From: a virus
Taxonomy: Duplodnaviria > Heunggongvirae > Uroviricota > Caudoviricetes
Reading direction: 5' to 3' (one strand)
DNA length: 57,747 nt
IMG/VR virus record: IMGVR_UViG_2917393062_000003
Location: 1 to 57,747 of that record
A model generated the notes under the pieces. That model was not told the DNA's origin. It worked only from the letters and a program-made list of their open reading frames with translations, and ran no database searches. A program made the translations under genes and the position numbers. Below, one piece after another: positions 1 through 55,567 of the stretch (position 1 is its first letter; the number at the start of each line of letters is the position of its first letter).

Positions 1-357
1 ATGAATGAGAGAATTGATCAGGTATACAATCACCTGTCTGATGTCAAAAATGACGCGTCTCTCGCATGCGCAGTTACTCGTATGGAAACAACGTTATCTG
101 GTATCGAGCAAAAAATGTCCTCACTGGACAGTATCAATAAGACACTTGCTGAGCATTCCCATAAATTGTCTGAGTTAGCTCAAATAGACAAAAAGCTCGA
201 AAAACTCGATGACATAGATGATACCATTAGAAAAGCAAAGGTTTATATCGGCGTGAGTCTGGCGGTGATTTCATTCTGTGCTGGTGTAACTTGGTGGCTT
301 TTTGGCAGTTATCTTGGAAAGGTGATCGAGGCGCTGAATGCGCTTGTCCTGAAATAA
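1..357 (+). CDS. hypothetical coiled-coil protein with C-terminal hydrophobic segment (left flank, phage-like)
   Basis: ORF track 118 aa; ends with a TM-like stretch VSLAVISFCAGVTWWLFG; followed by an intrinsic terminator. Confidence 0.4.
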   Translation: MNERIDQVYNHLSDVKNDASLACAVTRMETTLSGIEQKMSSLDSINKTLAEHSHKLSELAQIDKKLEKLDDIDDTIRKAKVYIGVSLAVISFCAGVTWWLFGSYLGKVIEALNALVLK

Positions 358-365
358 TTCCTAAC

Positions 366-390
366 CCCGGCTATGCCGGGGTTTTTGCAT
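366..390 (+). terminator. rho-independent terminator
   Basis: hairpin aaccccggc-tatg-ccggggtt followed by a T-run. Confidence 0.6.
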
Positions 391-393
391 TAG

Positions 394-951
394 CTAAAGC
401 GACATTAACCTTTCCAACAGTTGCTCCTTACGGGCAACTATCCAGCCTTGCTGTTCCAGATAAAACTTAAAACGCTCCAGGGTACACACCATTGCGTCGG
501 CTGGGACTTTTTCCGTGAACTCAACCTGACCGTGGCTATTGAAATGGATCAGCAATGCGCATCCATCATTTTCGATGGGGGAGTTTTGCGCTGCTGGTGG
601 TTGTTTCTGACTGAAATAACAATCTTCCAGTTTTTCGAACACTTCCCACGCCTGATCGGTTTCGAGCATTTTGGCATGGCGGGCAGCGCCTCGTTCCGTC
701 CAGAGGATGAGGGAGCGGGTTTTGGGGGAAATTTGCAGGTAACTAAAAGTTACTCGCAAATTTTTCAGATCATCGCCAACGACTTTGAAATAATGCTTCC
801 CTTCCAGAAAACGAGTTTGATTACGTGAATGATTCATTTTTATGTTGGCAACATCCGTTCCATAAAGATGCGCCAATAGCTCGGTGGTTATGACAGGGAT
901 CTGGTTGTGGGTAATCGGGGAAAGAGTTTCAACTGCGATTTTGGTGGCCAT
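394..951 (-). CDS. ORF6N/KilA-C-like antirepressor-type protein (paralog of 13676-14221)
   Basis: 185 aa; motif LILWTERGAARHAKMLETDQAWEVFEKLED shared with the second copy at 13676-14221. Confidence 0.6.
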   Translation of the reverse strand: MATKIAVETLSPITHNQIPVITTELLAHLYGTDVANIKMNHSRNQTRFLEGKHYFKVVGDDLKNLRVTFSYLQISPKTRSLILWTERGAARHAKMLETDQAWEVFEKLEDCYFSQKQPPAAQNSPIENDGCALLIHFNSHGQVEFTEKVPADAMVCTLERFKFYLEQQGWIVARKEQLLERLMSL

Positions 952-1104
952 AAGATGATCCTTTTTCTTTGTGAATCATCACCACCTGCGACGCCAATCG
1001 CTTGGTGGTGAACTGTGCAGGGTTGGCGTAACCGGGAAAAAGGAACCGGCGCGGATTGCTCCGCCCCCACACAGCCCACCATTGAGATGTGACTGTGCAA
1101 ACGA

Positions 1105-1130
1105 CAATAAAAAAGACGCTGGCGCGTCTG
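1105..1130 (-). terminator. putative intrinsic terminator downstream of int
   Basis: minus-strand hairpin agacgc-gcca-gcgtct followed by T-run. Confidence 0.4.
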
Positions 1131-1215
1131 TTGTCGCCTTTTTCATCCGGGACGCCAATCCCGATACCAGATTTTGCTGGCATGTGCAGACTATAATCCC
1201 GGATGGTTATTTTTG

Positions 1216-2334
1216 TCAAACAACCAACTTAACCCATTCCTGACCTCGAGTATCGTTATAGCGATCGGTGGTTGCCTGGACTTTATGTCCCAGTAATGTT
1301 TTTGTATCGATACCCTGCGCACGGTACAGCCGTTCTGACAGGGAGCGTTGTTCATGAAATGTTGGTGGTGTTTTTCCTGCTGGTGGAGTTATTCCTGCCA
1401 GATCCCGCGCTTTAGCAAAGTAGTCGCTCAGGTTATCTTTACTCATTGGTTTTGGTTGTTTCTGGTGCCGGCTATGAATCAGGTATGGACTCAATATTCT
1501 GTCCCTGCATCCATCAATCACTTCTTTTAGCGATATCCCAATGGCATCACAGCGTAGCGTCAGCGGTAACGCCAGACGCATTCCAGTTTTTCCCTGGGTA
1601 ATATGCAGGTGTTCGTTCCACACATCTGAAAAACACATGTGGCAAATGTCATCACGGCGCTGACCAGTAACAATCGCAAGAAGCATTGCGTTACGGATAA
1701 AGTGTTTTTCAGGCGTTGCGTTGTAAATTTTTTGCCAGTCTTCCAGAGTGAGCCTGGCTCTGGTTACTTTAGGGATCGGTTTACGGGTAGCCTCCGGAGG
1801 ATTCCATCCGGGAGGGACTTCCCCTGCATGCTGTGCTTCTTTATAAATATCAACCCATAATCCGCGATTTACTCTCGCTGTGCTCACCATGTCTTTATCC
1901 AGCCACTCGTCCAGTATCAATGCAAAGTCTCTTACTTCCAGCTCTTTCAGTGGGTGGTTTCCCAGGCGGGAAACCAGGTATGCAGCCATTCGCGATTTTT
2001 CTTTGTGGGTTGTAGCTGCAATATCTCCATTTTTCAGTCGTGTGTCCTGTATTTTCAGATATCGATCAACCCATGCTTTTAATCTGATACCCCGACGTTT
2101 TGTTGCTGACGGACTTTCGTCAATTTTGCGCATGAAATATTCTGCTTCTGCTGCAGCTATTCGCTGATTGGCTGTGGAAGCGATTTTTTCCGCCTTGCCT
2201 TTGTCTGTTCCGAGCCCGTGAAATTTTCCAGTCACAGGGTTTTTATACTGGTAGTAAACCCTGCCAGTTCTGCGATCAAACTTTTCGTAAAGACCGGCAA
2301 CGTCAGTGCTGTTTTTTCGTGGCCTCGGTGACAT
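1216..2334 (-). CDS. int: tyrosine integrase, lambda Int family
   Basis: 372 aa; motifs LAIVTGQRRDDI, PPTFHEQRSLSERLY, GQEW matching lambda Int catalytic region. Confidence 0.9.
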   Translation of the reverse strand: MSPRPRKNSTDVAGLYEKFDRRTGRVYYQYKNPVTGKFHGLGTDKGKAEKIASTANQRIAAAEAEYFMRKIDESPSATKRRGIRLKAWVDRYLKIQDTRLKNGDIAATTHKEKSRMAAYLVSRLGNHPLKELEVRDFALILDEWLDKDMVSTARVNRGLWVDIYKEAQHAGEVPPGWNPPEATRKPIPKVTRARLTLEDWQKIYNATPEKHFIRNAMLLAIVTGQRRDDICHMCFSDVWNEHLHITQGKTGMRLALPLTLRCDAIGISLKEVIDGCRDRILSPYLIHSRHQKQPKPMSKDNLSDYFAKARDLAGITPPAGKTPPTFHEQRSLSERLYRAQGIDTKTLLGHKVQATTDRYNDTRGQEWVKLVV

Positions 2335-2572
2335 GAGTTAAAATCTCCTTCAGTGCATCATCATCGCCAGTATGAATTTCCGGCGCAATTCCCGTTTCAC
2401 CAGGTCCAACAAATACTGCCCGGCGATCTATCAGCCAACGTCCACGAATTTTTTGTGGTCTTGGTACGATATATCCAAGTTTTCCGTATTTCACCAGGGT
2501 AGTGTTTGTTATTGGGAGACTGAACCGTTTAGGTTTCCACTCGTCGAGCGTTATCAGGTACTGTTCGCTCAT
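2303..2572 (-). CDS. xis: excisionase-like protein
   Basis: about 89 aa directly upstream of int and overlapping it; ATG at 2572 with SD GGAGTG. Confidence 0.6.
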   Translation of the reverse strand: MSEQYLITLDEWKPKRFSLPITNTTLVKYGKLGYIVPRPQKIRGRWLIDRRAVFVGPGETGIAPEIHTGDDDALKEILTHVTEATKKQH

Positions 2573-2633
2573 GGTTATCACTCCGGAACGCGCCAGTTGC
2601 AGAATACCAACGACAACTGGCGACGGTTGAACA

Positions 2634-5114
2634 TTAAAAATCAGCCTGACTCGGGATCAGTTTTTGCCAGATTACTGAAACGTATTTCGCCTGGTGACGG
2701 GCATCATCCAGCGCATTGTGGCGCACGCCTTCAAATGGAATAACTGTTCTGGCATCGAAACCGATAGTTTTTCCCAGTTCAACGATTGTACGTACATCGC
2801 GATCGTTGTAGTAACGCCACGGGCAGGGGATGTTCAGGCGTTCGTACGAGGTTCGTAAAATAGTGTTGTCGAAAGTTGCACCATTGCCCCATACCTGAAC
2901 GAATTTTTCATCCGAGTACTCATTGATGAATTCCCGAAATTGAATAAGAGCGTCAACCAGTTTTACCTGATCAACTAAAATTGCAGATCTGGCTTCGCTG
3001 GACTGAGCAAGCCACCATTCGATGGTGGAACCATCAGGAACAGCCCCCGTGTCCATAGCGTCAACCAGGCTGATAACGATATAAAATGTTGGCCCGATTT
3101 CCCCGGTCTGCGGATCGAAGAACACAGCACCAATAACCACGATGGGGGCATTACTTTTTTTACCCATCGTTTCAAGGTCGATCATCAGGTGGTACCACAC
3201 TCTGCTGGTGGATGTGATAACGTGATGACCGTTCACCGCAATTAAGGGATCTGCTGTCTCGCCAGTTTCGCTATCGCTGGCGTGGTCCTGATAGCTGCCA
3301 GCATTCTCTTTGTGTGGATGTTCAGCGCCTTCCATTTCCTCCGGATCGTCTTCCTGAACTTCAACCTGATTCTCGTCATCGAATGTTTCCTGGTATGTTG
3401 CGTCGCCCATCACCGCGCCACAATCAGGGCAGTTGCCGCCACCGCTCTGGCCGCAGGCGGTGCAGACTTTTTCCGGCTTCTGTTGCGCTACTGGTTCAGG
3501 CTGTTTCGTTTCTGGCTCGTTTTGTTGCGCATTTGGGCTGTTTTGTTCCGCTTTCTGGTCGTTCTGTTCCGTTTCTTGCTGGTTCTGGTACACAGAATCG
3601 CGGGTCTGGATCCCATTAACCCATTTCGGATCATTCGGGTCGCTAATCCCTGCAACAAATTCACCACGTGATACTGCAAGCAGTTCATCGGCGTCAGGCT
3701 GGCTGATATTGGCTGCCTGCATAATTTTGTTTACTTCGTCAGCGGTAACTTTTACCGACTCTGGTTGTGCGATCGTGTCAGATGCACCAGTATTTTGTTG
3801 TGAACCTGAGTATGTACCGTTTTTGCGGGCAAAATATTCTTCTTTCGTGATTTCAGTAGCTCCCAAGGCCAGCGCTTTTTCCAGACCAGAAAGTTTGTTT
3901 GCGCGACCGTATTTTTCGCCGTCCTTATCGGTGAAAAGGAAGTAGAACGGCCCCTCACGCTCTACAGATGGTTCAGTTTCCAGCGTGCTTTCATTTTTTT
4001 GGGTATCAGATACTTCAGTTTCCACTGCATCAGTTTGTGCTGCTGACGGCTGGAGAATATCAGCAGTGTTCTGGTCTGTTTCTTCATCCTCAAACACGCC
4101 CTTTGTCGCCAGGTATTCAGTGATGTATTTGTTCAGTGCCACGGGATCTTTGTGAATGTCGAGCGGACGCTCACGGACAAGACCAAAAATAGTCTGACGG
4201 TTATAGCGAATGGCATCAGGCTGTTTGCGCATTGATGCGGAAATGCGCTTCCAGTCTTCGCGGTCTTTGGCGATAACTTCATTTTCTGCCCAGCGAAGGA
4301 TGTTACCGTCAATGCTTCCGGGGTCCGTATCACCAGGCCAGAGATAGCAGGCCAGCTCCCTGTCCAGCGCTTTCCATGTCTGCTTATATTCGCGACGAAT
4401 GGCATCAGTGGCAGGGTTGATTTTTTCTGCTGAATTTTCGGTGTTCTGTCGGTTGGTTCTGGCGCGGGCGAGATCAACAACAGACGTGTATTTCCCGGTT
4501 TCTTTGCGTTCGGCTTCGCGACGTTTTTTCCAGATGCGCATCTCCGCCTGAATTTCGGGCCATTTGGCACCTGGATTACATTTATGTTTAACCCACCCGA
4601 TGGCGAGCAGCTTAAGCTCTGAATACATGACGTTAACTTCAGGCATTTTCATCAGTGCCTCAACGATATGCCCGTCGAATGTTGCCATGTCCTCCTGCAA
4701 CAATTCCTGTGCACTAATCACCATATCAACGGTGATGTTTTCACATGTACCGAACTTAACCAGGACCGCGTTCTGTACTTCAAGGGACAGCTTGTCAAAA
4801 TTGACGTTCATCGGATCGGATTCTGGTTCGACCGGAATAAAGGAAGCGGATTCCTCATCCCAGCGGTTTTCCTGCATATATTCGGTATCCCAGGAGTCGA
4901 TAGCAGGGCGGGGCATGCCGGGTTTATCCTCGCAGACAAGAAATTTATAAGCGCAGTCCTGAGCAGCCGGATATTGCTCCAGGAATTGCCAGGTAAATTT
5001 GGCACGGGCGCGGCGTTCGTCACCGGCTTCAATGGCAGTGGCTACAGCAACTGCACCTTCTTCCTTTATTGCCTGTTCGTCCGGAATGGCGGCGCAAATA
5101 AAGACTTTACTCAT
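2634..5114 (-). CDS. RecE-like (exonuclease VIII family) protein with C-terminal DEDDh 3'-5' exonuclease domain
   Basis: 826 aa; central region LLAVSRGEFVAGISDPNDPKWVNGIQTRD...CTACGQSGGGNCPDCGAVMGDATYQETFD recalled from Rac RecE; C-terminus carries DEDDh motifs (MIDLETMG, WGNGATFDNTILR, HNALDDARH). Confidence 0.7.
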   Translation of the reverse strand: MSKVFICAAIPDEQAIKEEGAVAVATAIEAGDERRARAKFTWQFLEQYPAAQDCAYKFLVCEDKPGMPRPAIDSWDTEYMQENRWDEESASFIPVEPESDPMNVNFDKLSLEVQNAVLVKFGTCENITVDMVISAQELLQEDMATFDGHIVEALMKMPEVNVMYSELKLLAIGWVKHKCNPGAKWPEIQAEMRIWKKRREAERKETGKYTSVVDLARARTNRQNTENSAEKINPATDAIRREYKQTWKALDRELACYLWPGDTDPGSIDGNILRWAENEVIAKDREDWKRISASMRKQPDAIRYNRQTIFGLVRERPLDIHKDPVALNKYITEYLATKGVFEDEETDQNTADILQPSAAQTDAVETEVSDTQKNESTLETEPSVEREGPFYFLFTDKDGEKYGRANKLSGLEKALALGATEITKEEYFARKNGTYSGSQQNTGASDTIAQPESVKVTADEVNKIMQAANISQPDADELLAVSRGEFVAGISDPNDPKWVNGIQTRDSVYQNQQETEQNDQKAEQNSPNAQQNEPETKQPEPVAQQKPEKVCTACGQSGGGNCPDCGAVMGDATYQETFDDENQVEVQEDDPEEMEGAEHPHKENAGSYQDHASDSETGETADPLIAVNGHHVITSTSRVWYHLMIDLETMGKKSNAPIVVIGAVFFDPQTGEIGPTFYIVISLVDAMDTGAVPDGSTIEWWLAQSSEARSAILVDQVKLVDALIQFREFINEYSDEKFVQVWGNGATFDNTILRTSYERLNIPCPWRYYNDRDVRTIVELGKTIGFDARTVIPFEGVRHNALDDARHQAKYVSVIWQKLIPSQADF

Positions 5115-5194
5115 TTTGTTTTAACCTCATTACAGATTTAAGGGTGAACAAATCCATGCCATTGCTGGCATATAAAAATGAAACTGGATATTAA

Positions 5195-5395
5195 TTACGG
5201 CGCTGTTTTAAGTCCTGCCGGGATTTCGTTATTATCCAGGGGAATAACTTTATCGACCGGATAGCAGTTGCCGGGAATTTTCTGTTCTGCTGCGGCAGCC
5301 GTGCATTCTTTCATTGAACCATATATACCAGTAACCACATCAACCGGTTCGCCCGTATTAAGAAAAACAGTCAGGACGAGTGCAAATACTGTATT
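5195..5395 (-). CDS. small secreted/exported protein (signal peptide-like N-terminus)
   Basis: start MNTVFALVLTVFL with SD AAGGA 8 nt upstream; ATGA overlap with upstream ORF. Confidence 0.45.
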   Translation of the reverse strand, partial: NTVFALVLTVFLNTGEPVDVVTGIYGSMKECTAAAAEQKIPGNCYPVDKVIPLDNNEIPAGLKTAP

Positions 5396-5583
5396 CATTG
5401 CCAGCATCCTTTTTGTATCGGACGTAAACGTGCCAGCATTGAAAGAATGCAAATTTTATTTAATAACTCCCGTTCGTGTTTTCTCTTATTAATGGCATCT
5501 TCAGTAAATACAGGGTTACTGATTCTGACTCCAATTTCAAAACAACCTTCAGACGTATTAACGTTTGGTAATAACGTTTCCAT
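5395..5583 (-). CDS. hypothetical early-left protein
   Basis: 62 aa ORF, SD GAGGA before ATG, translationally coupled to downstream ORF. Confidence 0.4.
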   Translation of the reverse strand: METLLPNVNTSEGCFEIGVRISNPVFTEDAINKRKHERELLNKICILSMLARLRPIQKGCWQ

Positions 5584-6139
5584 TATCGCGTCCTCAACAA
5601 TGAATTTTGTGATGCGGTGCCTGGTGCCTCCAGGTGACGTTAACCAGTTAACAATTAACGCCGGAGTATTTCACGTTACGCCAGTAAAGGACCGCTTTAC
5701 TGTTTTAACTGTTCCGCGTGCGCTGAGCCGCATTCACCGCGCCACAAAATTCACTTTAAAAAGGGCGGACATCAGCCAGCAATGAAACTGATGCCGCCAA
5801 AAGGTAATCAACATGGGTTGTTGCAGCGGGGTTGTCACTCAGGCGTATGGTCAACCTGACAACCCGGCGTCCTCAACGGGGAAGGAATAACCCCGCCATA
5901 CATACCGCCGCGCCATTTCGCGGAGTGCCACAACCGGAAGCGCACAGACGAAGATGTCAGTGGTACACAACAAAGGGAGGAATGACTTCGCTGTGCGCTT
6001 TCGCGTTATGCCCTGACTTTTCAGGGATATATCCTTTCAGTAAACTGTCAGTGCCGGATGCTCACCCGTGTCCGGCGCACGCACTCCACCTGACCCGTGG
6101 AGAACTCCTTAATTACCAACCCTCAGGAGGGTGAAATTT

Positions 6140-16542: not shown

Positions 16543-16902
16543 ATGCGTATAGAGCTTGTTTTGCCTTACCCGCCGACGGTGAACACCTACTGGCGACGTC
16601 GTGGCAGCACATATTTTGTATCAAAAGCCGGTGAGCGTTATCGTCGGGATGTGGCGCTCATTGTTCGCCAGCAGCGACTGAAATTAAACCTGTCCGGAAG
16701 GCTGGCAATAAAAATTATTGCAGAGCCACCGGATAAGCGCCGCCGAGACCTGGACAATATCCTGAAAGCTCCACTGGATGCGCTGACGCATGCGGGACTA
16801 CTCATAGACGACGAGCAGTTTGATGAAATCAATATTGTGCGTGGTCAGCTCGTTCCTGGTGGGCGGCTGGGGATAAAAATCACAGAGCTGGAGTGCGCAT
16901 GA
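16543..16902 (+). CDS. rusA: Holliday junction resolvase RusA
   Basis: 119 aa; DKRRRDLDNILKAPLDALTHAG matches RusA catalytic region. Confidence 0.85.
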   Translation: MRIELVLPYPPTVNTYWRRRGSTYFVSKAGERYRRDVALIVRQQRLKLNLSGRLAIKIIAEPPDKRRRDLDNILKAPLDALTHAGLLIDDEQFDEINIVRGQLVPGGRLGIKITELECA

Positions 16903-17588
16903 ATTACCAGTATTTACAGTTTGTTCGTGAGCAACTCATGATTGCCACCGCCGATTTGAGTGGAGCAACAAAAGGACAGCTTGAGGCCTGGCAGGAGAAT
17001 GCCATGTTTGAAACAGGGCGTTACAGGCGTAAAAAAATCCGGTACCGCGATGAAGTGACCGGAAAAATGATAACGCGGGATAATCCACCAATCCCGGGAA
17101 AACAATCGCTGGCGAAAGGTTCGTCAATTCCTCTGGTAAGTCAGGTTGAGTTTTCGACATCATCATGGCGACGGGCAGTTCTGTCTCTTGAAGAACATCA
17201 TAAAGCCTGGTTGTTGTGGTGTTACAGCGGCAGCATTTGCTGGGAACACCAGATCGCGATAACGCAGTGGGTGTGGCATGAATTTAACGCACAATCCGGT
17301 ACCAGAAAAATTGCAGGGAAAACGCTGGAGCGCCTGAAAAAATTAATCTGGCTGGCGGCACAGGATGTGAAGAGTGAGCTGGCTGGGCGTGAAACTTATG
17401 AATATCAGGAACTGGCATTACTGGCGGGAGTAACAACAAAAAACTGGTCCAAAACATTTACTGGTCACTGGGTTGCAATGAAACATATTTTCCACCGTCT
17501 GGATAGTGAGGCTTTATTGTTTGTGATGAGAACGCGTTCAGAACAAAAGGCGGCATTTTCAAAGCAAAGTGTTGCAAAAGTAGATTAA
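16899..17588 (+). CDS. putative late-gene antiterminator (Q-like), assigned mainly by position
   Basis: about 230 aa immediately after rusA and before a terminator and the lysis genes; no Cys4 zinc finger seen. Confidence 0.45.
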   Translation: MNYQYLQFVREQLMIATADLSGATKGQLEAWQENAMFETGRYRRKKIRYRDEVTGKMITRDNPPIPGKQSLAKGSSIPLVSQVEFSTSSWRRAVLSLEEHHKAWLLWCYSGSICWEHQIAITQWVWHEFNAQSGTRKIAGKTLERLKKLIWLAAQDVKSELAGRETYEYQELALLAGVTTKNWSKTFTGHWVAMKHIFHRLDSEALLFVMRTRSEQKAAFSKQSVAKVD

Positions 17589-17653
17589 AAGGCATATATT
17601 TCGTGCAAATCTGATATTTTGCCGATTTTGTACGCGATGGCAAAGTAAGCAAG

Positions 17654-17677
17654 GCCCGCCGCTGAGCGGGTTTTTTT
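17654..17677 (+). terminator. rho-independent terminator (tR'-like) downstream of Q-like gene
   Basis: gcccgc-cgctga-gcgggt followed by 7 T. Confidence 0.6.
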
Positions 17678-17890
17678 ATGTCTGAAAAACGGCACAGGGC
17701 GTTAAACACGCTGGTGGTTGCGCAGTGAGCGGTTTGAGCAGGCGGTGAGTGAGATAAGAGAAGTTCTGACATGTAAAGCCGTTGGTTGATTAATGCTTAT
17801 TTTTTTATAAGTCTTATTGCAATATATAAGTGTGGGGTGTAAAGTTATTCTCGAAATAATCATGTTTTCTCACGAATCAGAGGGGGGATA

Positions 17891-18151
17891 ATGATTGAGG
17901 TTCGATGGACAAGGACAGCCCTGAAGCAGTTACTTCGTGTGGATACGCGGTATCGGCAGGCGATAAAGGATAAGGTCGGTGCGCTAAAGGATTTTCCTCT
18001 GGTAGCTATGGATTTTAAAAAGCTATCAGGGAGTGATAATCGATTCCGTTTGAGGGTCGGAGTGTACAGGGTTATTTTTGATGTTGAGGATGGTGATCCT
18101 GTTGTCCTGGATATTAAGGAAATTAAGCGCAGAAGCACAACCACATACTAA
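17891..18151 (+). CDS. RelE/ParE-superfamily type II toxin (HigB-like by gene order)
   Basis: 86 aa; RFRLRVGVYRVIF motif; toxin gene precedes antitoxin. Confidence 0.7.
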   Translation: MIEVRWTRTALKQLLRVDTRYRQAIKDKVGALKDFPLVAMDFKKLSGSDNRFRLRVGVYRVIFDVEDGDPVVLDIKEIKRRSTTTY

Positions 18152-18211
18152 GGGAGGCTGGCGGGAAACCGCCAGTTTGCTGAACGACATTCAATCGCGA
18201 AAGGCAATGAT

Positions 18212-18586
18212 ATGAAAAACAGTGTCCAGTTTATTACTGATAATGCCGGGATTAGAACCGGGGTCATTATGTCAGTTGCTGAATATGAACGGCTGTTAAG
18301 CCTGGCAGATCCTGATGATGATTTTGAAAGCATCAAATATGAAGCCGGAGAGCATGACAATGAGACAATACCTCATGAAGTAGTATCCATCATGATTGAT
18401 GATGATGTGTCATTGTTGGCAGCATGGCGGATTTACAGGCGAATGACTCAGCAGGAAGTAGCGGAGTGTCTGGGGGTTAAACAGTCAGCCGTATCTCAGT
18501 TTGAGAGAGCAGGAGCTCCGCGAAAATCAACACTGGAAAAACTGGCTGAGATTTACAACTGCCGACCAAATCAGTTGGCTGATTGA
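18212..18586 (+). CDS. HigA-like antitoxin with C-terminal HTH_XRE
   Basis: 124 aa; HTH MTQQEVAECLGVKQSAVSQFE. Confidence 0.65.
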   Translation: MKNSVQFITDNAGIRTGVIMSVAEYERLLSLADPDDDFESIKYEAGEHDNETIPHEVVSIMIDDDVSLLAAWRIYRRMTQQEVAECLGVKQSAVSQFERAGAPRKSTLEKLAEIYNCRPNQLAD

Positions 18587-18931
18587 TTCGGTTTTCGTAA
18601 CGATTGCATTTTTCTTATCTGCTTGCCGTTGTTTGTAGCGTGTTTTTGCATGTTGTTTTGTAGTTAACCTTATGGTTGGCTGGATTTTGTTCATCCATAA
18701 AAAAATATCCCTCTCTGATCTTTAAGGTTCGCTTTTGCGGGCCTTTTTTTTTATATCCGCGCCACGCCCGGCGCACATCAAAAACCACAGAGCCTTTCAG
18801 GGGTGAGCTTACGGGATGGTCAGTGTGACTTTCTCTGTGGGCTGGTCACCCCGGGGCCTTTACTGCGCAAATCTGAATAACACTACACAAAAGGCATCTG
18901 CGGGTGCCTTTGACGGGGTGTTGTTTTTTAC

Positions 18932-18953
18932 GGGCCGCTGGTGGCCCTTTTTT
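18932..18953 (+). terminator. intrinsic terminator-like hairpin just upstream of the holin RBS
   Basis: gggcc-gctggt-ggccc followed by 6 T. Confidence 0.45.
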
Positions 18954-18969
18954 ATTTACAGGAGATGTT

Positions 18970-19356
18970 ATGGCAGAACCAGTATCCGGCACGACACAGG
19001 CCGGGCTGGCTGTTGGCGGGGTAACCGTTGTCGGCCTGTTCGACTGGATTGAGCCAGGCGTATTAATCGGGGCTTTTGCAGGTTCCATTATTTTTGTTAT
19101 GTCGGCGCGCGAATACCCGGTCTGGGGAAAATTGCTGCTTTTTATCGCGTCGCTGATGGCGGGAATCGTCGCCGCACCGTTCTCGTCTTCGGTTATCACT
19201 TTGCTGACACCGGAAAGCATTTCAGCCAGTCGTTCGGTTGGTGCGCTGGTGGCGTCTGCGGTATCGGTCCGCTTGCTAATGCTGTTGGGGAATGAGCCGT
19301 CATCATTATTTGGTCGGTTCTGGCCTAAAGGGAGAGGAGGCGATGGGGGTAAGTAA
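18970..19356 (+). CDS. putative holin
   Basis: 128 aa multi-TM protein with SD AGGAG, directly upstream of the endolysin. Confidence 0.55.
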   Translation: MAEPVSGTTQAGLAVGGVTVVGLFDWIEPGVLIGAFAGSIIFVMSAREYPVWGKLLLFIASLMAGIVAAPFSSSVITLLTPESISASRSVGALVASAVSVRLLMLLGNEPSSLFGRFWPKGRGGDGGK

Positions 19357-19624
19357 TTTTATTCTTACGCTGAATGCGTTCACCTGCGCCCTGATTGTTC
19401 TCGTCCTTCTGGCTTATCAACGAAGTGGCGCAAATTACTGCTGGAAGTCCTCTTTTTGCGCCTGGTTGCTGATGGTTGCCTGCGGCTCGGTAACCATCTT
19501 GATTCTGACCGGGGTCTATCGTCATCCGAGCATACCCGAAACTGTTATCAATATCGCACTGCTGGTGACTGTATGGGGTGCCAGGGGAAATATATCTCGA
19601 CTGGTAAACAGCAGGAAAAATTAA
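19340..19624 (+). CDS. second small membrane protein of the lysis cassette (holin/antiholin-like)
   Basis: 94 aa; strong SD GGAGGAGG; hydrophobic segments. Confidence 0.5.
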   Translation, partial: AMGVSNFILTLNAFTCALIVLVLLAYQRSGANYCWKSSFCAWLLMVACGSVTILILTGVYRHPSIPETVINIALLVTVWGARGNISRLVNSRKN

Positions 19625-19636
19625 CAGGAAAATATC

Positions 19637-20179
19637 ATGACAAAAGACGAAATTTTTGATGCCGTTCTTGGTAAAGAGGGCGGTTACGTCAACCATCCGG
19701 ATGATAAAGGTGGGCCGACCAAATGGGGAATTACGGAAAAAGTCGCCCGTGCGCACGGATATCAGGGCGATATGCGTAACCTGACACGCGGGCAGGCGCT
19801 GGAAATACTCGAGGCGGATTACTGGTATGGCCCACGATTCGACCAGATTGCGAACCTGTCGCCGGATATTGCTGCAGAACTGTGCGACACGGGCGTGAAC
19901 ATGGGACCAACTGTGGCGTCCAGAATGCTTCAACGCTGGCTGAACGTTTTCAACCTGCGCGGGAAACTGTATCCGGATATGGATGCAGATGGACGCATCG
20001 GACCTCGTACCCTCAATGCGTTACGGGCATATCTGAAAAATCGTGGCAGGGATGGAGAGCTGGTAATGCTGACCGCGCTGAACTGTACGCAGGGTGACCG
20101 CTATCTGGAGCTGGCAGAGAAACGGGAGGCTAACGAGTCGTTTGTCTACGGCTGGATGAAAGAGCGTGTGGCTGTATGA
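19637..20179 (+). CDS. endolysin (GH108-type muramidase with C-terminal peptidoglycan-binding region)
   Basis: 180 aa; EGGYVNHPDDKGGPTKWGIT motif. Confidence 0.8.
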   Translation: MTKDEIFDAVLGKEGGYVNHPDDKGGPTKWGITEKVARAHGYQGDMRNLTRGQALEILEADYWYGPRFDQIANLSPDIAAELCDTGVNMGPTVASRMLQRWLNVFNLRGKLYPDMDADGRIGPRTLNALRAYLKNRGRDGELVMLTALNCTQGDRYLELAEKREANESFVYGWMKERVAV

Positions 20180-51361: not shown

Positions 51362-51894
51362 TGAACGGCTTTTCTCTTCGCAATCTGATTTCCCGGGCTG
51401 TCATCACGGCGGTGGATTCCGCCAGAAAGTGTCAGTCTGTAGGGTTGAAAATGATAGCCGGAGATCAGAAACAACACGTTGAGCATCTTGAACCTTATGG
51501 TTTTACATCTGCCGCACAGAACGGTGCTGAGGGCGTTGCTTTATTCCCGGCGGGCGATCGTTCTCATGGCGTAGTTGTGGTCGTGGCTGACAGGCGTTAC
51601 CGGTTGAAAGGACTGAAACGTGGGGAAGTGGCGCTTTATGACGATCAGGGGCAGTCGGTTATCCTGACCCGTTCCGGTATTGTGGTGAACGGGGGCGGGA
51701 AGCCTATTATTTTTAAAAACGCGCCTAAAGCACGCTTTGAAATGCCTGTCGAATCCACCGCCGATATTACTGACAATTGCGACAGTGGCGGACTCAGCAT
51801 GCAGCAAATGCGGCAGACCTACAATGCCCACAAACACACCGAAAATGGTGATGGTGGCGGGATCACTGACGCGCCGGATCAACCGATGGGCTGA
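51361..51894 (+). CDS. baseplate assembly protein V / spike (Mu gp45-like)
   Basis: 177 aa. Confidence 0.6.
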   Translation: MNGFSLRNLISRAVITAVDSARKCQSVGLKMIAGDQKQHVEHLEPYGFTSAAQNGAEGVALFPAGDRSHGVVVVVADRRYRLKGLKRGEVALYDDQGQSVILTRSGIVVNGGGKPIIFKNAPKARFEMPVESTADITDNCDSGGLSMQQMRQTYNAHKHTENGDGGGITDAPDQPMG

Positions 51895-51899
51895 AAATC

Positions 51900-52313
51900 A
51901 TGATGATTAATGTTAACGGGCGACACGTGTCGACCGGGGCTTCGATCGACCTTCTGACGCGTGCTGTGATTATTTCGCTTTTTACCTGGCGGCGTGCCGG
52001 GCGGGATGATGATGCACCGCAGATATTTGGCTGGTGGGGGGATACCTGGCCTGCGGTTCAGAATGATCGCACGGGGTCACGTCTGTATCTGTTGCGACGC
52101 AGCAAGCTGACAAATAAAACCCCGCAGCTTGCCAGAGATTATGCCCGTGAGGCGCTGGCGTGGATGGTGGAAGATGGGGTCGCCGCCCGTCTTGATATTA
52201 ACGCCGTCCGGACCGGGACAGACTCGCTGGCACTTGCCATTACCATTTACCAGCGTGACGGCAATATTCACAACATTATTTTTGATGATATCTGGAGTGA
52301 ACTGAATGGCTGA
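51900..52313 (+). CDS. GP46-family baseplate protein
   Basis: 137 aa; position in Mu-like baseplate module. Confidence 0.55.
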   Translation: MMINVNGRHVSTGASIDLLTRAVIISLFTWRRAGRDDDAPQIFGWWGDTWPAVQNDRTGSRLYLLRRSKLTNKTPQLARDYAREALAWMVEDGVAARLDINAVRTGTDSLALAITIYQRDGNIHNIIFDDIWSELNG

Positions 52314-53388
52314 CAGTCAGTTTTATCGCCCCGGCCTCCCGCAACTTATTTCTATGATCCGGAGCGATTTATTAACCCGCTTTGAACAGGATACGCTGCT
52401 TCGTCGTATGGATGCGGAAGTGTATGCCCGTGTGCAGGCCGCAGCCGTGCACACGTTGTACGGGTATATCGATTATCTTGCCAGAAATCTGTTGCCGGAC
52501 ATGTGTGATGAAGACTGGCTGTACCGGCACGCCAGAATCAAACGCTGCCCGCGAAAAGATGCCGTGGCAGCCCGGGGATTTGTGCGCTGGGATGGCGTTG
52601 AAGGGACACCGGTATTGCCAGCGGGAACGCAGATCCAGCGTGACGATCAGGTGACCTTCACCACGACGGCGACGGTGACCGCAGTCGATGGTCTTCTCCG
52701 GGTGCCTGTTGTGGCAGACGAACCGGGTTTGGCGGGGAATACAGATGACGGTATTGCCATGCAACTGGGGACCCCCGTCAGTGGTCTGCCGTCCACAGGG
52801 TACGCAGACACCATTACAGACGGTGAAGATATTGAAAATCTGGAAATATGGCGTGCCCGCGTTATGGAACGTTATTACTACATTCCACAGGGAGGCGCAG
52901 ATCCAGATTATGTTATCTGGGCGAAAGAAGTTCAGGGTATTAATCGTGCATGGACCTTCAGGCACTGGAAAGGTATTGGAACGGTTGGGGTGATGGTGGC
53001 GACGAACGATCCGGAACATCCGGCCCCGGATGAAAGCGTCATTAACGCAGTCAGGGAGCATATTCTTCCCCTGGCACCTGTTGCCGGAAGCGGATTGTAT
53101 GTATTCGGTGCAACAGAGAAAGTCATCCCGATGACGATTGCGTTATCGAAAGACACACCGCAGATCAGGACTGCAATAAAAGCAGAACTGAATGCGCTGA
53201 TGTTCCGGGATGGTGTACCGGAAGGGCGCATGTATCTGTCCAGAATCAGCGAGGCCATCAGTTTATCTGCAGGCGAGGTGGCCCACCGGTTAATCGCCCC
53301 TTCATCGGATATTGATCTTGGGGAAACCGAACTTCCGGTACTCGGGGAGATCACATGGCAGGCTTATGACCCGGTAAGGAGTAAATAA
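52306..53388 (+). CDS. baseplate J-like protein (Mu gp47-like)
   Basis: 360 aa. Confidence 0.65.
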   Translation: MADSQFYRPGLPQLISMIRSDLLTRFEQDTLLRRMDAEVYARVQAAAVHTLYGYIDYLARNLLPDMCDEDWLYRHARIKRCPRKDAVAARGFVRWDGVEGTPVLPAGTQIQRDDQVTFTTTATVTAVDGLLRVPVVADEPGLAGNTDDGIAMQLGTPVSGLPSTGYADTITDGEDIENLEIWRARVMERYYYIPQGGADPDYVIWAKEVQGINRAWTFRHWKGIGTVGVMVATNDPEHPAPDESVINAVREHILPLAPVAGSGLYVFGATEKVIPMTIALSKDTPQIRTAIKAELNALMFRDGVPEGRMYLSRISEAISLSAGEVAHRLIAPSSDIDLGETELPVLGEITWQAYDPVRSK

Positions 53389-53978
53389 TGGATTCGTTAC
53401 AGGATGATTATACAAAATTGTTGTATGGCCTGATGCCGCCGGGACCTGCATGGTCAGATACCGACGGTGTACTTGACGGTCTGGCGCCGTCGCTTGTGCG
53501 TGTACATCAGCGGGCTGATGAACTGGTGATTGAAATCGATCCCGGTCAGTCAACAGAGCTGATTGAGCGTTATGAAGAATTGTATGGTTTACCTGATTCC
53601 TGCTCCCCTGTCGGGACTCAGACATTACGCCAGCGCCAGCAACGGCTGGAAGCAAAAGCTAATGTGGCTGGTGGCATAAATGAGCAGTTCTTCCTGGATC
53701 AGCTTGAGGCACTGGGATATACCGACGTGAAGATCGAACAATTCCAGCACCTGGATGCAAGCCCCGATCCGGAATGGGGAGATCGCTGGCGTTATTTCTG
53801 GCGCGTGACGTTGCCGGTGGATGCCGGTGCTCAGTGGCAGACATGCACGGATGCCTGCAACACACCGATCCGGACGTGGGGCGATACGGTTGCGGAGTGC
53901 GTGATTAATAAATTATGTCCGTCGCATACCGTCGTTTTATTTTCCTATCCAGATGAGGATGAAGATGCACAGGATTGA
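53388..53978 (+). CDS. tail protein, Mu gp48/YmfQ-like (DUF2313-type)
   Basis: 196 aa; N-terminal MDSLQDDYTKLLYGLMPPGPAW. Confidence 0.55.
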   Translation: MDSLQDDYTKLLYGLMPPGPAWSDTDGVLDGLAPSLVRVHQRADELVIEIDPGQSTELIERYEELYGLPDSCSPVGTQTLRQRQQRLEAKANVAGGINEQFFLDQLEALGYTDVKIEQFQHLDASPDPEWGDRWRYFWRVTLPVDAGAQWQTCTDACNTPIRTWGDTVAECVINKLCPSHTVVLFSYPDEDEDAQD

Positions 53979-55086
53979 TACGCTGACAGCGGTAAAAGAT
54001 AAGTTTGGTCCGGGCAAGAACGGATTTACTGACGGAAATCTTCGCACAGGACGTCTTGCCACCTGGCTGAACAGTGCCATGTGGGATGCCATTCAGGAGG
54101 AAATCTGTGGTGTCATTGAGAAGGCAGGGATAGAACTGAATAAAGAAGAACACGATCAGCTCTATAAAGCCATATTATTACTGGTGGGCGGTGCAATTAA
54201 CGAAGAGGCATTGCTGATCAAAAATAATCTTTCGGATGTGAAAAACAAGAATAAGGCTGTTGAAAACCTCGGATTAAAACCCACGGTCGAAAAGGCAAAA
54301 AATGCCGTTCAGCGCGATGGTGACACCATGAGTGGTGATTTGACGTTTGAAAATGACGCAATACTTGCGTGGATTCGAAATACAGATTGGGCAAAGATTG
54401 GGTTTAAAAATGATTCGGATTCAGACACCGATTCATATCTGTGGTTTGAAGCGGGAGATAATGGAAACGAATATTTCAAGTGGCGGAGTAAGTATGGAAC
54501 TACAACCACGGACCTGATGAATCTCAAGTGGGATGCGCTGTATGTTCTTGTTAAAGCCCTTTTCAGTAGTGAAGTAAAAATATCTACACTCAATGCACTG
54601 AGGATATTTAATTCATCTTTTGGCGCCATTTTTCGCCGTTCTGAAGACAGCCTGCATATCATTCCCACACGAGAAAACGAAGGGGAAAATGGTGATATTG
54701 GGCCGCTACGACCATTTTCGATTGACCTCAGAACTGGTCGCATAACTATGGGGCATGGATTAAATGTTGGTGGACAAGTGGTTCCGACAGACTACAGCAA
54801 TTTCGATGCTCGTTATCAGCAGATAAGAAACACCGCATCAAAAGCAGCAAATGGCTGGTTTAAGGATGAGGCCACGGGCGTCATTATGCAATGGGGGTAT
54901 CTGTCAAACGCCTCATCCGGCCTGACTTTTCCGATAGCGTTTCCGTCAGCATGCGCCAGCATTACCATAACTAACGCACACACACGTGCAAATTACAGTA
55001 TTGCGTTGAACTCGCTGTCAAATACAGGTGCAACGTTTTACAGCGAAAACAACGGGCATATGTATTGGACAGCGGTGGGATATTAA
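53965..55086 (+). CDS. tail fiber protein (first fiber)
   Basis: about 373 aa from MHRIDTLTAV after baseplate genes. Confidence 0.65.
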   Translation: MHRIDTLTAVKDKFGPGKNGFTDGNLRTGRLATWLNSAMWDAIQEEICGVIEKAGIELNKEEHDQLYKAILLLVGGAINEEALLIKNNLSDVKNKNKAVENLGLKPTVEKAKNAVQRDGDTMSGDLTFENDAILAWIRNTDWAKIGFKNDSDSDTDSYLWFEAGDNGNEYFKWRSKYGTTTTDLMNLKWDALYVLVKALFSSEVKISTLNALRIFNSSFGAIFRRSEDSLHIIPTRENEGENGDIGPLRPFSIDLRTGRITMGHGLNVGGQVVPTDYSNFDARYQQIRNTASKAANGWFKDEATGVIMQWGYLSNASSGLTFPIAFPSACASITITNAHTRANYSIALNSLSNTGATFYSENNGHMYWTAVGY

Positions 55087-55088
55087 TA

Positions 55089-55520
55089 ATGGCGATTTAT
55101 TTCAGTCCATCAACAAACGGTTTTTATAATTCTGACCTTCAGGGCGATTATGAAAACGCTGGAGCGTGGCCGGATGATTTAAAAGAAATTGCTGATGCCG
55201 ATTATCTGAATTTGCTGGATGGTCAGGCCTCCGGGCTTATTATTCTGTCAGATGAAGACGGATATCCGGTATTAAAAGAACCCGTAATTAACTGGCAGCA
55301 GAAAGCAGAAATGCAACGCCAATGTCTGCTGGCTGAAGCAAAGGACGTCATCTCCGACTGGAAAACCGAGCTAGAGCTGGGAATCATCAGCGATGTAGAT
55401 AAAGCCCGTCTGACACAATGGATGGCATATATCAAATCACTGAAGGCACTGGATTTAAGCAAGGTCAGTGATGAGCCATCCTTTGATTTAATTCCGTGGA
55501 CGGAAAAACCAGTCATGTAA
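55089..55520 (+). CDS. tail fiber assembly protein (first)
   Basis: start MAIYFSPSTNGFYNS with SD GGTGGG. Confidence 0.65.
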   Translation: MAIYFSPSTNGFYNSDLQGDYENAGAWPDDLKEIADADYLNLLDGQASGLIILSDEDGYPVLKEPVINWQQKAEMQRQCLLAEAKDVISDWKTELELGIISDVDKARLTQWMAYIKSLKALDLSKVSDEPSFDLIPWTEKPVM

Positions 55521-55567
55521 AACAATAACGGTCGCTTCCAGGAGACCGTTTTCAGTTCAGAGGCTCT

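Follow-up and report, generated by a model that had tools for sequence, protein, structure and literature searches.

A RelE-family toxin and a hybrid RelB-like/XRE antitoxin as a probable moron cassette in the Q-to-lysis slot of a lambdoid Escherichia-type prophage

The viral record IMGVR_UViG_2917393062_000003 (Duplodnaviria; Heunggongvirae; Uroviricota; Caudoviricetes) was analysed as a window of 57,747 nucleotides (nt), the whole stretch of DNA considered here, and we describe a pair of small genes that lies in it between a Q antiterminator gene and the lysis genes. The first gene (17891-18151, + strand) encodes a toxin of 86 amino acids (aa) that is assigned to the RelE family by PF05016, phrog_1213, RefSeq and an AlphaFold2 model. 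The second gene (18212-18586, + strand) encodes an antitoxin of 124 aa recognised by HTH_3, phrog_7241 and AlphaFold2. Both genes are on the + strand and the gap between them measures 60 nt. The initial annotation of this DNA had proposed a type II toxin-antitoxin (TA) pair with the toxin gene 5' of the antitoxin gene and had placed it between Q and holin; order and place both hold, with a PF06323 gene upstream and a Phage_holin_8 gene downstream. We consider it very probable that the pair is a self-contained type II RelE/hybrid-antitoxin cassette and a moron in the variable Q-to-lysis slot of a lambdoid Escherichia-type prophage with a phiP27-like late region.

As evidenced by its match to Pfam PF05016 in a hidden Markov model search (33.2 bits, E=8e-8, cut-off 23), the product of the first gene is a toxin of the RelE/ParE fold, as had been predicted. 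This family carries the name 'ParE_toxin' and covers the entire RelE/ParE superfamily; a narrower placement in the RelE subfamily comes from phrog_1213, a profile search of the PDB, Foldseek and hhalign. The match to phrog_1213, 'RelE-like toxin', has E=7e-21, and PHROGs files this family under 'moron, auxiliary metabolic gene and host takeover'. RefSeq contains a cluster that is 100% identical to the toxin; it is found on 901 contigs and is named by NCBI 'MULTISPECIES: type II toxin-antitoxin system RelE family toxin [Escherichia]'. With phmmer run exhaustively over 1.84 billion cluster representatives we obtained 490 relatives at E<=0.001. Across 52 aligned family members R60, R81 and Y86 are invariant and W6, R53, R55 and G57 nearly invariant. 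Searching all PDB sequences with the profile of these 52 members we obtained RelE-subfamily matches only, namely M. jannaschii RelE3 (3bpq, 1e-7), P. horikoshii aRelE (1wmi, 3.7e-7), E. coli RelE (4e-6 to 5e-5), T. thermophilus RelE and M. tuberculosis RelE proteins including Rv2866; neither ParE nor HigB was matched in this search.

The AlphaFold2 model of the toxin has a predicted local distance difference test (pLDDT) score of 90.3 and displays a compact beta-alpha-alpha-beta-beta-beta RelE fold. Its predicted elements are a strand at residues 5-6, helices at 8-16 and 19-34, and strands at 42-44, 51-56, 59-66 and 69-77. Using Foldseek we found that the top matches of this model are all RelE proteins with TM-scores of 0.70-0.77, among them 3bpq_B (TM 0.76, root mean square deviation (rmsd) 1.7), with YoeB, ParE, HigB and YafQ at lower ranks. 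Sequence identity to solved RelE proteins is 21-26%. Alignment with E. coli RelE by hhalign (probability 94.6%) pairs R51 and R53 with K52 and K54, R60 with R61 and R81 with R81, and in the phmmer alignment the C-terminal Y86 falls on Y87. All five catalytic positions of E. coli RelE (K52, K54, R61, R81 and Y87) are thus occupied by a basic residue or a tyrosine in the toxin. By sequence, predicted fold and conserved residues the protein is a RelE-type ribosome-dependent mRNA endonuclease, an activity that we infer.

The antitoxin had been described as a protein with an XRE-type helix-turn-helix (HTH), and the search agrees with this: residues 72-120 match HTH_3 (PF01381; 39.8 bits, E=4.6e-10, cut-off 23) and the predicted XRE domain superposes on P22 c2 and 434 Cro in Foldseek. 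Over its full length the protein matches phrog_7241 (E=4e-49). Its relatives measure 119-132 aa and are found in Salmonella (66-75% identity), in Photorhabdus and Xenorhabdus (~60%), and in Yersinia, Pectobacterium, Pantoea, Serratia, Haemophilus and other genera. In the AlphaFold2 model (pLDDT 86) a beta-hairpin (6-9, 15-19) and a helix (22-32) are followed by a linker of lower confidence (~38-54) and a five-helix XRE domain (~55-122). PDB sequence and profile searches gave matches confined to the HTH part, PADLOC returned generic HTH matches only, and the Pfam search gave no ribbon-helix-helix match. For the N-terminal segment (~5-37) the relationship is to PF18506 'RelB-like', which at E<=0.01 is matched by 26 of the 35 members of the family alignment (best 1.1e-8); this Pfam family derives from the antitoxin in 3BPQ, the M. 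jannaschii RelBE3 complex. The RelB-like N-terminal module and the flexible linker are most likely the parts that bind and block the toxin. The antitoxin profile and model also brought up a solved, uncharacterised protein of Neisseria gonorrhoeae (NGO0477, PDB 3KXA, 141 aa). Its C-terminal HTH corresponds to residues 70-117 of the antitoxin (E=6e-4), and its Foldseek alignment with the antitoxin model extends over 124 columns with poor rmsd. This protein may be a solved antitoxin of similar two-domain design.

To follow the pair through its relatives we used the antitoxin profile to gather 143 loci, of which 63 come from one-per-species genomes and the other 80 from viral contigs; among the loci returned from the one-per-species set there is none of Escherichia or Salmonella. 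In 121 of the 143 loci the gene immediately 5' of the antitoxin gene, on the same strand, encodes a toxin homologue; toxin-only loci lie outside the view of this count, since the loci were chosen through the antitoxin. The proposal of a type II TA pair is in accordance with this, as two small, co-oriented and adjacent genes are found and their pairing is kept in these 121 loci. Compared with the E. coli copies, the toxin gene of the window differs at 3 or 0 nucleotides, all synonymous, and the antitoxin gene at 11, which amount to 6-7 synonymous and 3 non-synonymous codon changes. The substitution pattern, given in small numbers, is compatible with purifying selection. Loci with a lone antitoxin include L006-L009, L011, L013, L017, L020, L031, L058, L059, L076 and L080; in the two Buttiauxella loci of this group (L017 and L080) a DNA methylase gene lies directly 5' of the lone antitoxin. 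A methylase homologue is also found near the TA pair in 24 of the 143 loci, in either orientation.

The Q-to-holin interval was compared across related prophages. When 17589-18969 was compared by megablast with 5,426 complete E. coli genomes, the flanks were detected in 1,351 of them and the cassette in only 11. These E. coli copies are ~95.5% identical to the window and always span 17724/17726 to 18782/18857, and in the genomes that carry them the pair also lies in the Q-to-holin interval, with a DNA methyltransferase gene 5' and TerB, DUF3927 and NanS-type esterase genes 3' of it. RefSeq labels the E. coli pair 'type II toxin-antitoxin system RelE family toxin' and 'helix-turn-helix domain-containing protein', and the phage record PPyecE_EH1910 labels it 'plasmid stabilization protein' and 'transcriptional regulator'. 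Identity between the window and L147, a prophage of E. coli A36, is 95% over Q and the tR' segment (16801-17693) and 89% over the segment upstream of holin (18855-18989). The slot of L147 holds tRNA-Thr, tRNA-Gly, TerB and DUF3927, and the TA pair is absent from it. L147 has the same flanks and other cargo, which makes the slot a variable one and the cassette a moron within it. This status, which had been put forward earlier, is thus sustained by the comparison with L147, by the 11 of 1,351 flank-matching E. coli genomes that carry the pair, and by a lower GC content of the cassette (0.40-0.48) than of the flanks (0.49-0.55).

Read from left to right, the interval is a mosaic. The Q backbone extends up to 17693, and a methylase 3'-end remnant on the + strand (17726-17790), recognised by translation as a stump of 20 codons, marks the left joint of the cassette. 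The stump translates to SERFEQAVSEIREVLTCKAVG, and in E. coli prophages an intact methylase with the C-terminus AERFEQTVSEIREILTCKAVD lies directly 5' of the same TA pair. The cassette runs to about 18718 and is followed by a segment (18719-18857) that precedes TerB in relatives and is also present in the TA-less L147. The TerB-DUF3927 gene pair is missing from the window and the holin-upstream segment joins directly at 18855, from where the holin backbone continues. The interval shows how such a slot is rebuilt by recombination, with a methylase stump to the left of the cassette and no TerB-DUF3927 to its right. In the relative L084 the holin8, holin3_7 and GH108 genes are found on the opposite strand just 5' of the toxin gene, so that the pair is inverted in the slot, and in L109 and L116 the Q gene is found on the opposite strand just after the antitoxin gene. 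Since the same slot is occupied in either orientation among relatives, the TA unit is autonomous.

A candidate promoter for the cassette lies 45 nt before the toxin ATG on the + strand, with TTGCAA at 17817-17822, a spacer of 17 nt and TAAAGT at 17840-17845. We assigned it by comparison, aligning 110 nt of upstream sequence from loci L004-L146. The relatives display a clear promoter of the TTGACA-17-TATTAT type 44-45 nt 5' of the toxin ATG, and the site at 17817-17845 has the same geometry with weaker hexamers, which suggests that it is the cassette promoter. Two inverted repeats read from the sequence are candidate operators, CTTAT-N6-ATAAG at 17796-17811 and CTTAT-N8-ATAAG at 17813-17830. 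In the nearest Photorhabdus and Xenorhabdus relatives, ATAAG/CTTAT half-sites likewise border the -35 and -10 elements, and the half-sites over these elements vary by clade (ATAAG/CTTAT, TACGAT/ATCGTA and TTAGAT/ATCTAA). In the alignment the layout of promoter, operator and leader is conserved across the family. The relatives share a conserved leader motif, ATGCTCTTTAA, that comes after a small hairpin, and the leader of the window holds the palindrome TTATT-CTCGA-AATAA (17845-17859). The arrangement of promoter and repeats is the picture that would be expected of an operon repressed by its own HTH antitoxin.

Two further candidates in this region were rejected. Translational coupling was considered for a mini open reading frame (ORF) of nine codons at 17862-17891 (MFSHESEGG*), the stop codon of which overlaps the toxin start (TAATG). 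It is probably fortuitous, as the equivalent ATGCTCTTTAA motif is not consistently a closed ORF in relatives. A separate promoter for the antitoxin gene was sought 3' of the hairpin between the two genes, where 33 nt remain before the ATG and no plausible pair of hexamers was seen.

This intercistronic hairpin is a GC-rich stem-loop with a GAAA loop (AGGCUGGCGG-GAAA-CCGCCAGUUU) at 18155-18178 on the + strand, and it begins 4 nt after the toxin stop codon. Its fold has a free energy of -23.3 kcal/mol (z=-3.5 relative to shuffles). A comparable hairpin occurs no more than ~10 nt from the toxin stop codon in 49 of 71 distinct relatives, compared with 7% of shuffled sequences. The consensus in relatives is GGCGGG-GNAA-CCCGCC, with a GNRA loop, and clade-specific stems keep the pairing (GAGGGGG/CCCCCTC, AGTGGGGA/TTCCCACT, GACGGGGC/GCCCCGTC, GGCAGGGC/GCCCTGCC and TAGTGAGG/CCTCACTA). 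In the MAFFT alignment 88.7% of cells are paired, as against ~50% when the partner is slid; compensatory changes are found in 4 of the 6 pairs and the covariation score was matched by 0 of 500 shuffles. Literature searches on intercistronic hairpins in RelE/XRE systems found no description. We tentatively raise the somewhat doubtful idea that the hairpin and the conserved toxin leader form a post-transcriptional device peculiar to this family, by which a toxin-first operon fixes the ratio of toxin to antitoxin. Conceivable modes of action are partial termination, RNase processing or stabilisation, and a structure that gates translation of the antitoxin. If true, this would add a level of control that has not been described for RelE or HigB-type systems, and in our verdict the conserved hairpin is the sole feature that might repay follow-up.

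On either side of the cassette lie signals of the prophage backbone. A scan of 17400-19100 detected 5 terminator-like sites compared with 1.8 +/- 1.3 in shuffles. The tR'-like intrinsic terminator on the left (17651-17680, + strand) consists of a stem of 9 bp at 17651-17674 and a T run, and its fold has -14.7 kcal/mol (z=-1.3); the segment is ~87% conserved in many lambdoid prophages. Nearest to the 3' end of the cassette is a terminator-like hairpin (18724-18754, + strand) with a 9-bp stem at 18724-18745 and T9 (-13.1 kcal/mol, z=-3.1), which sits in the segment 18719-18857 that is shared with the TA-less L147 upstream of TerB. Tandem stem-loops (18875-18953, + strand) precede the ribosome-binding site of the holin gene and comprise a long hairpin with a U run (18875-18926) and GGGCC...GGCCC with a T run (18932-18953); the fold of 18860-18965 has -35.9 kcal/mol (z=-3.1). 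The stem at 18932-18947 alone (z=-0.8) and the stem at 17651-17674 (z=-1.3) are no more stable than shuffles, and these two count as putative terminators by pattern, a GC stem and a T run, and by position, not by energy. The tandem stem-loops belong to the backbone and not to the cassette, since they are common to phiP27 and L147 upstream of the holin genes. The earlier description of a cassette flanked by terminators therefore stands in part: both sites, 17651-17674 and 18932-18947, are present with their T runs, but they belong to the Q and holin backbone that is shared with cassette-less phages. The sites at 18724-18745 and 18875-18926 are additional to those of that description.

A pR'-like promoter (TTGCAA-17-TATATT, 17572-17600, + strand) overlaps the end of Q. 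It is a pattern match that scores 9/12 in the consensus scan, and its position after Q suggests pR' function. Together the pR'-like site and the tR'-like terminator predict an RNA of ~70 nt, which would be analogous to the pR'-tR' RNA of lambdoid phages. Searching 17500-19050 against Rfam gave nothing that reached the gathering score. Below threshold, isrK/isrJ, small RNAs of Salmonella prophages, matched 17604-17676 with 20-21 bits against gathering scores of 37-50. These matches, and those to Trp-leader and SorY, were set aside, as they are sub-threshold, overlap terminator hairpins and are probably driven by them.

The Q antiterminator gene of the left backbone (16893-17588, + strand; PF06323, E=4.4e-94) is preceded by RusA and DUF968 genes. 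On the right, the Phage_holin_8 gene (18970-19356, + strand; Pfam E=2.9e-20) is followed by a Phage_holin_3_7 gene (19343-19624), and a GH108 endolysin gene (19637-20179) comes after both holin genes, the last two assigned by Pfam. The whole window corresponds approximately to one prophage, with integrase, excisionase, exonuclease and dicB-like genes at the left end (1-6000) and baseplate and tail-fibre genes at the right end (51700-57747). Both ends are ~90-95% identical to E. coli prophages. No tRNA genes were found in the window, and relatives have tRNAs in the Q-to-holin slot.

From these data we propose how the cassette may work. By homology, the toxin would enter the ribosomal A site, cleave mRNA and arrest translation and growth. 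The XRE domain of the antitoxin most likely binds the CTTAT/ATAAG repeats over the weak promoter-like site, which would make the operon self-repressing. Expression of the pair in the lysogen would start at the candidate promoter 45 nt 5' of the toxin gene, as suggested by the promoter-like site with operator-like repeats that comparison brought out. If the cassette were lost or shut off, the toxin, as the more stable of the two proteins, would be set free, which may lead to prophage retention, or to aborted growth upon phage-induced host shutdown. In the lytic cycle, as position and strand suggest, RNA polymerase modified by Q would proceed from the pR'-like promoter past the tR'-like terminator, across the cassette and past the downstream terminators, as far as holin. 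Since the pair is inverted in several relatives, such late read-through would be a trait of this prophage and its E. coli relatives and not of the family as a whole. The analysis itself establishes the protein family, the predicted fold, the conserved residues at catalytic positions, the gene pairing, the mosaic position and the sequence motifs, while toxicity, neutralisation, mRNA cleavage, autoregulation, the expression pattern and the biological role are what we infer for the pair.

Several observations weigh against this interpretation. The active site of the toxin is not identical to that of E. coli RelE, since Lys52 and Lys54 are replaced by arginine and position 51, an arginine in the window, is mostly tyrosine across the 52-member alignment. 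No NCBIfam model names the toxin, and none of the PADLOC defence models matches it. The antitoxin of the window itself reaches only 13.9 bits (E=0.048) against PF18506, under the cut-off of 27. The candidate promoter of the cassette scores 8/12, which is under the threshold of the scanner, and was left uncalled. The remaining 22 of the 143 loci (~15%) have the antitoxin gene alone or beside toxin fragments, so the HTH protein can persist without the toxin. Finally, literature searches for the RelE/hybrid-antitoxin family and the accession WP_000573777 found nothing specific.

There is some chance that the main role of the pair is anti-phage defence of the lysogen, by abortive infection or superinfection exclusion, and not prophage addiction, with the same molecular mechanism. 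A phage that shuts off host transcription or translation would let the labile antitoxin decay, and RelE would then halt translation. The surroundings of the pair speak for such a role, as the slot holds accessory cargo in relatives (methylase, TerB, NanS esterase, tRNAs) and a DNA methyltransferase gene lies near the pair in 24 of 143 loci, and so does the PHROGs category of the toxin with its mention of morons and host takeover. It is established that type II TA systems are able to act in phage defence (reviews cited in PMC11364771), but RelE-type pairs are not known among the well-documented defence TA systems. PADLOC likewise argues against it, with no model for the toxin and generic HTH matches only for the antitoxin.

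Two other explanations concern the proteins themselves. That the toxin is a ParE-type DNA gyrase poison and not a RelE-type mRNA endonuclease is highly improbable, although the sole Pfam family matched is named ParE_toxin (PF05016), the ParE structures 6xrw, 6x0a and 5cw7 appear among the lower Foldseek matches (E ~2e-3 to 5e-3) and one E. coli record names the toxin 'plasmid stabilization protein'. At the sequence level the family profile finds only RelE and no ParE, every one of the best structural matches is a RelE protein, and the basic residues and the C-terminal tyrosine at the RelE catalytic positions are conserved. ParE toxins possess a longer C-terminal region, which is absent here, and 86 aa is the compact size of RelE. 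It is also unlikely that the pair no longer works as a TA system, with the HTH protein serving only in transcriptional regulation, be it of the cassette itself or of phage genes, and with a RelE-like ORF that is inactive or being lost. The weak promoter of the window and the 22 of 143 loci in which the HTH gene has no recognisable toxin upstream would fit such decay, but both ORFs of the window are full length, the toxin is 100% identical to the protein on 901 contigs and differs from the E. coli copies only by synonymous changes, and the family-invariant R60, R81 and Y86 are all present.

The cassette is ordinary and known at annotation level, since identical or near-identical copies are already annotated in RefSeq, in GenBank phage records and in PHROGs. 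It adds one further case of addiction/defence-type cargo in the lambdoid Q-to-lysis slot and has little import beyond correct annotation. The pairing of a RelE toxin with a hybrid antitoxin, RelB-like at its N-terminus and XRE at its C-terminus, could repay a small experiment, as the literature searches turned up no experimental work on this family.

Compared with other lambdoid Q-to-lysis morons (TerB, NanS-p, methylases, tRNAs), the cassette occupies the same slot after Q, pR' and tR' and before holin, of which the content varies. The stx genes and tRNAs of Stx phages occupy this slot as well. Like these morons it has a lower GC content than its flanks and candidate promoter and terminator sites of its own, whereas its cargo is a module of the addiction/defence type, unlike morons that carry virulence or metabolic genes.

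Among characterized TA systems, the toxin is nearest by profile and predicted structure (TM 0.73-0.77) to M. jannaschii RelBE3 (3BPQ), 1WMI and E. coli RelE (4FXE/4V7J). PF18506, the family derived from the 3BPQ antitoxin, is matched by the antitoxin N-terminus in 26 of 35 family members, but the cassette differs from 3BPQ in being toxin-first and in the C-terminal XRE HTH added to its antitoxin. Classical bacterial RelB has a ribbon-helix-helix DNA-binding domain and its gene comes first, whereas here the HTH is C-terminal and of the XRE type and the toxin gene comes first; the cassette thus lacks both the antitoxin-first order and the N-terminal ribbon-helix-helix RelB by which classical RelBE systems are recognised.

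With HigBA systems (Rts1/P. vulgaris HigBA, V. cholerae HigBA2, E. coli HigBA and Salmonella SehAB) the cassette shares the toxin-first order, a toxin of the RelE superfamily and an XRE-type HTH. E. coli HigA and SehB carry their DNA-binding domain at the C-terminus and use the N-terminal part for protein contacts, as proposed here, but these antitoxins measure 138-142 aa compared with 124 aa and their N-terminal domain is a different one (PMC7160566). As candidates for the nearest characterized homologues, SehAB and E. coli HigBA were first considered and then rejected, given their longer and different antitoxin and their absence from the matches of the PDB sequence and profile searches. The toxin matched none of the HigB Pfam families and HigB proteins appear as lower Foldseek matches (E ~4e-3 to 1e-2), while the antitoxin matches solved HigA2, HigA3 and HigA weakly and in the HTH only (E=0.04-0.18; best 7ewc HigA2, E=0.042). 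The HigBA label of the initial annotation is therefore right for gene order and HTH type and not for family, as the toxin matches RelE and not HigB and the N-terminus of the antitoxin is RelB-like. Overall, since toxin and antitoxin both point to the 3BPQ pair, 'HigBA' describes the order of the genes and the type of HTH rather than the family to which the cassette belongs.

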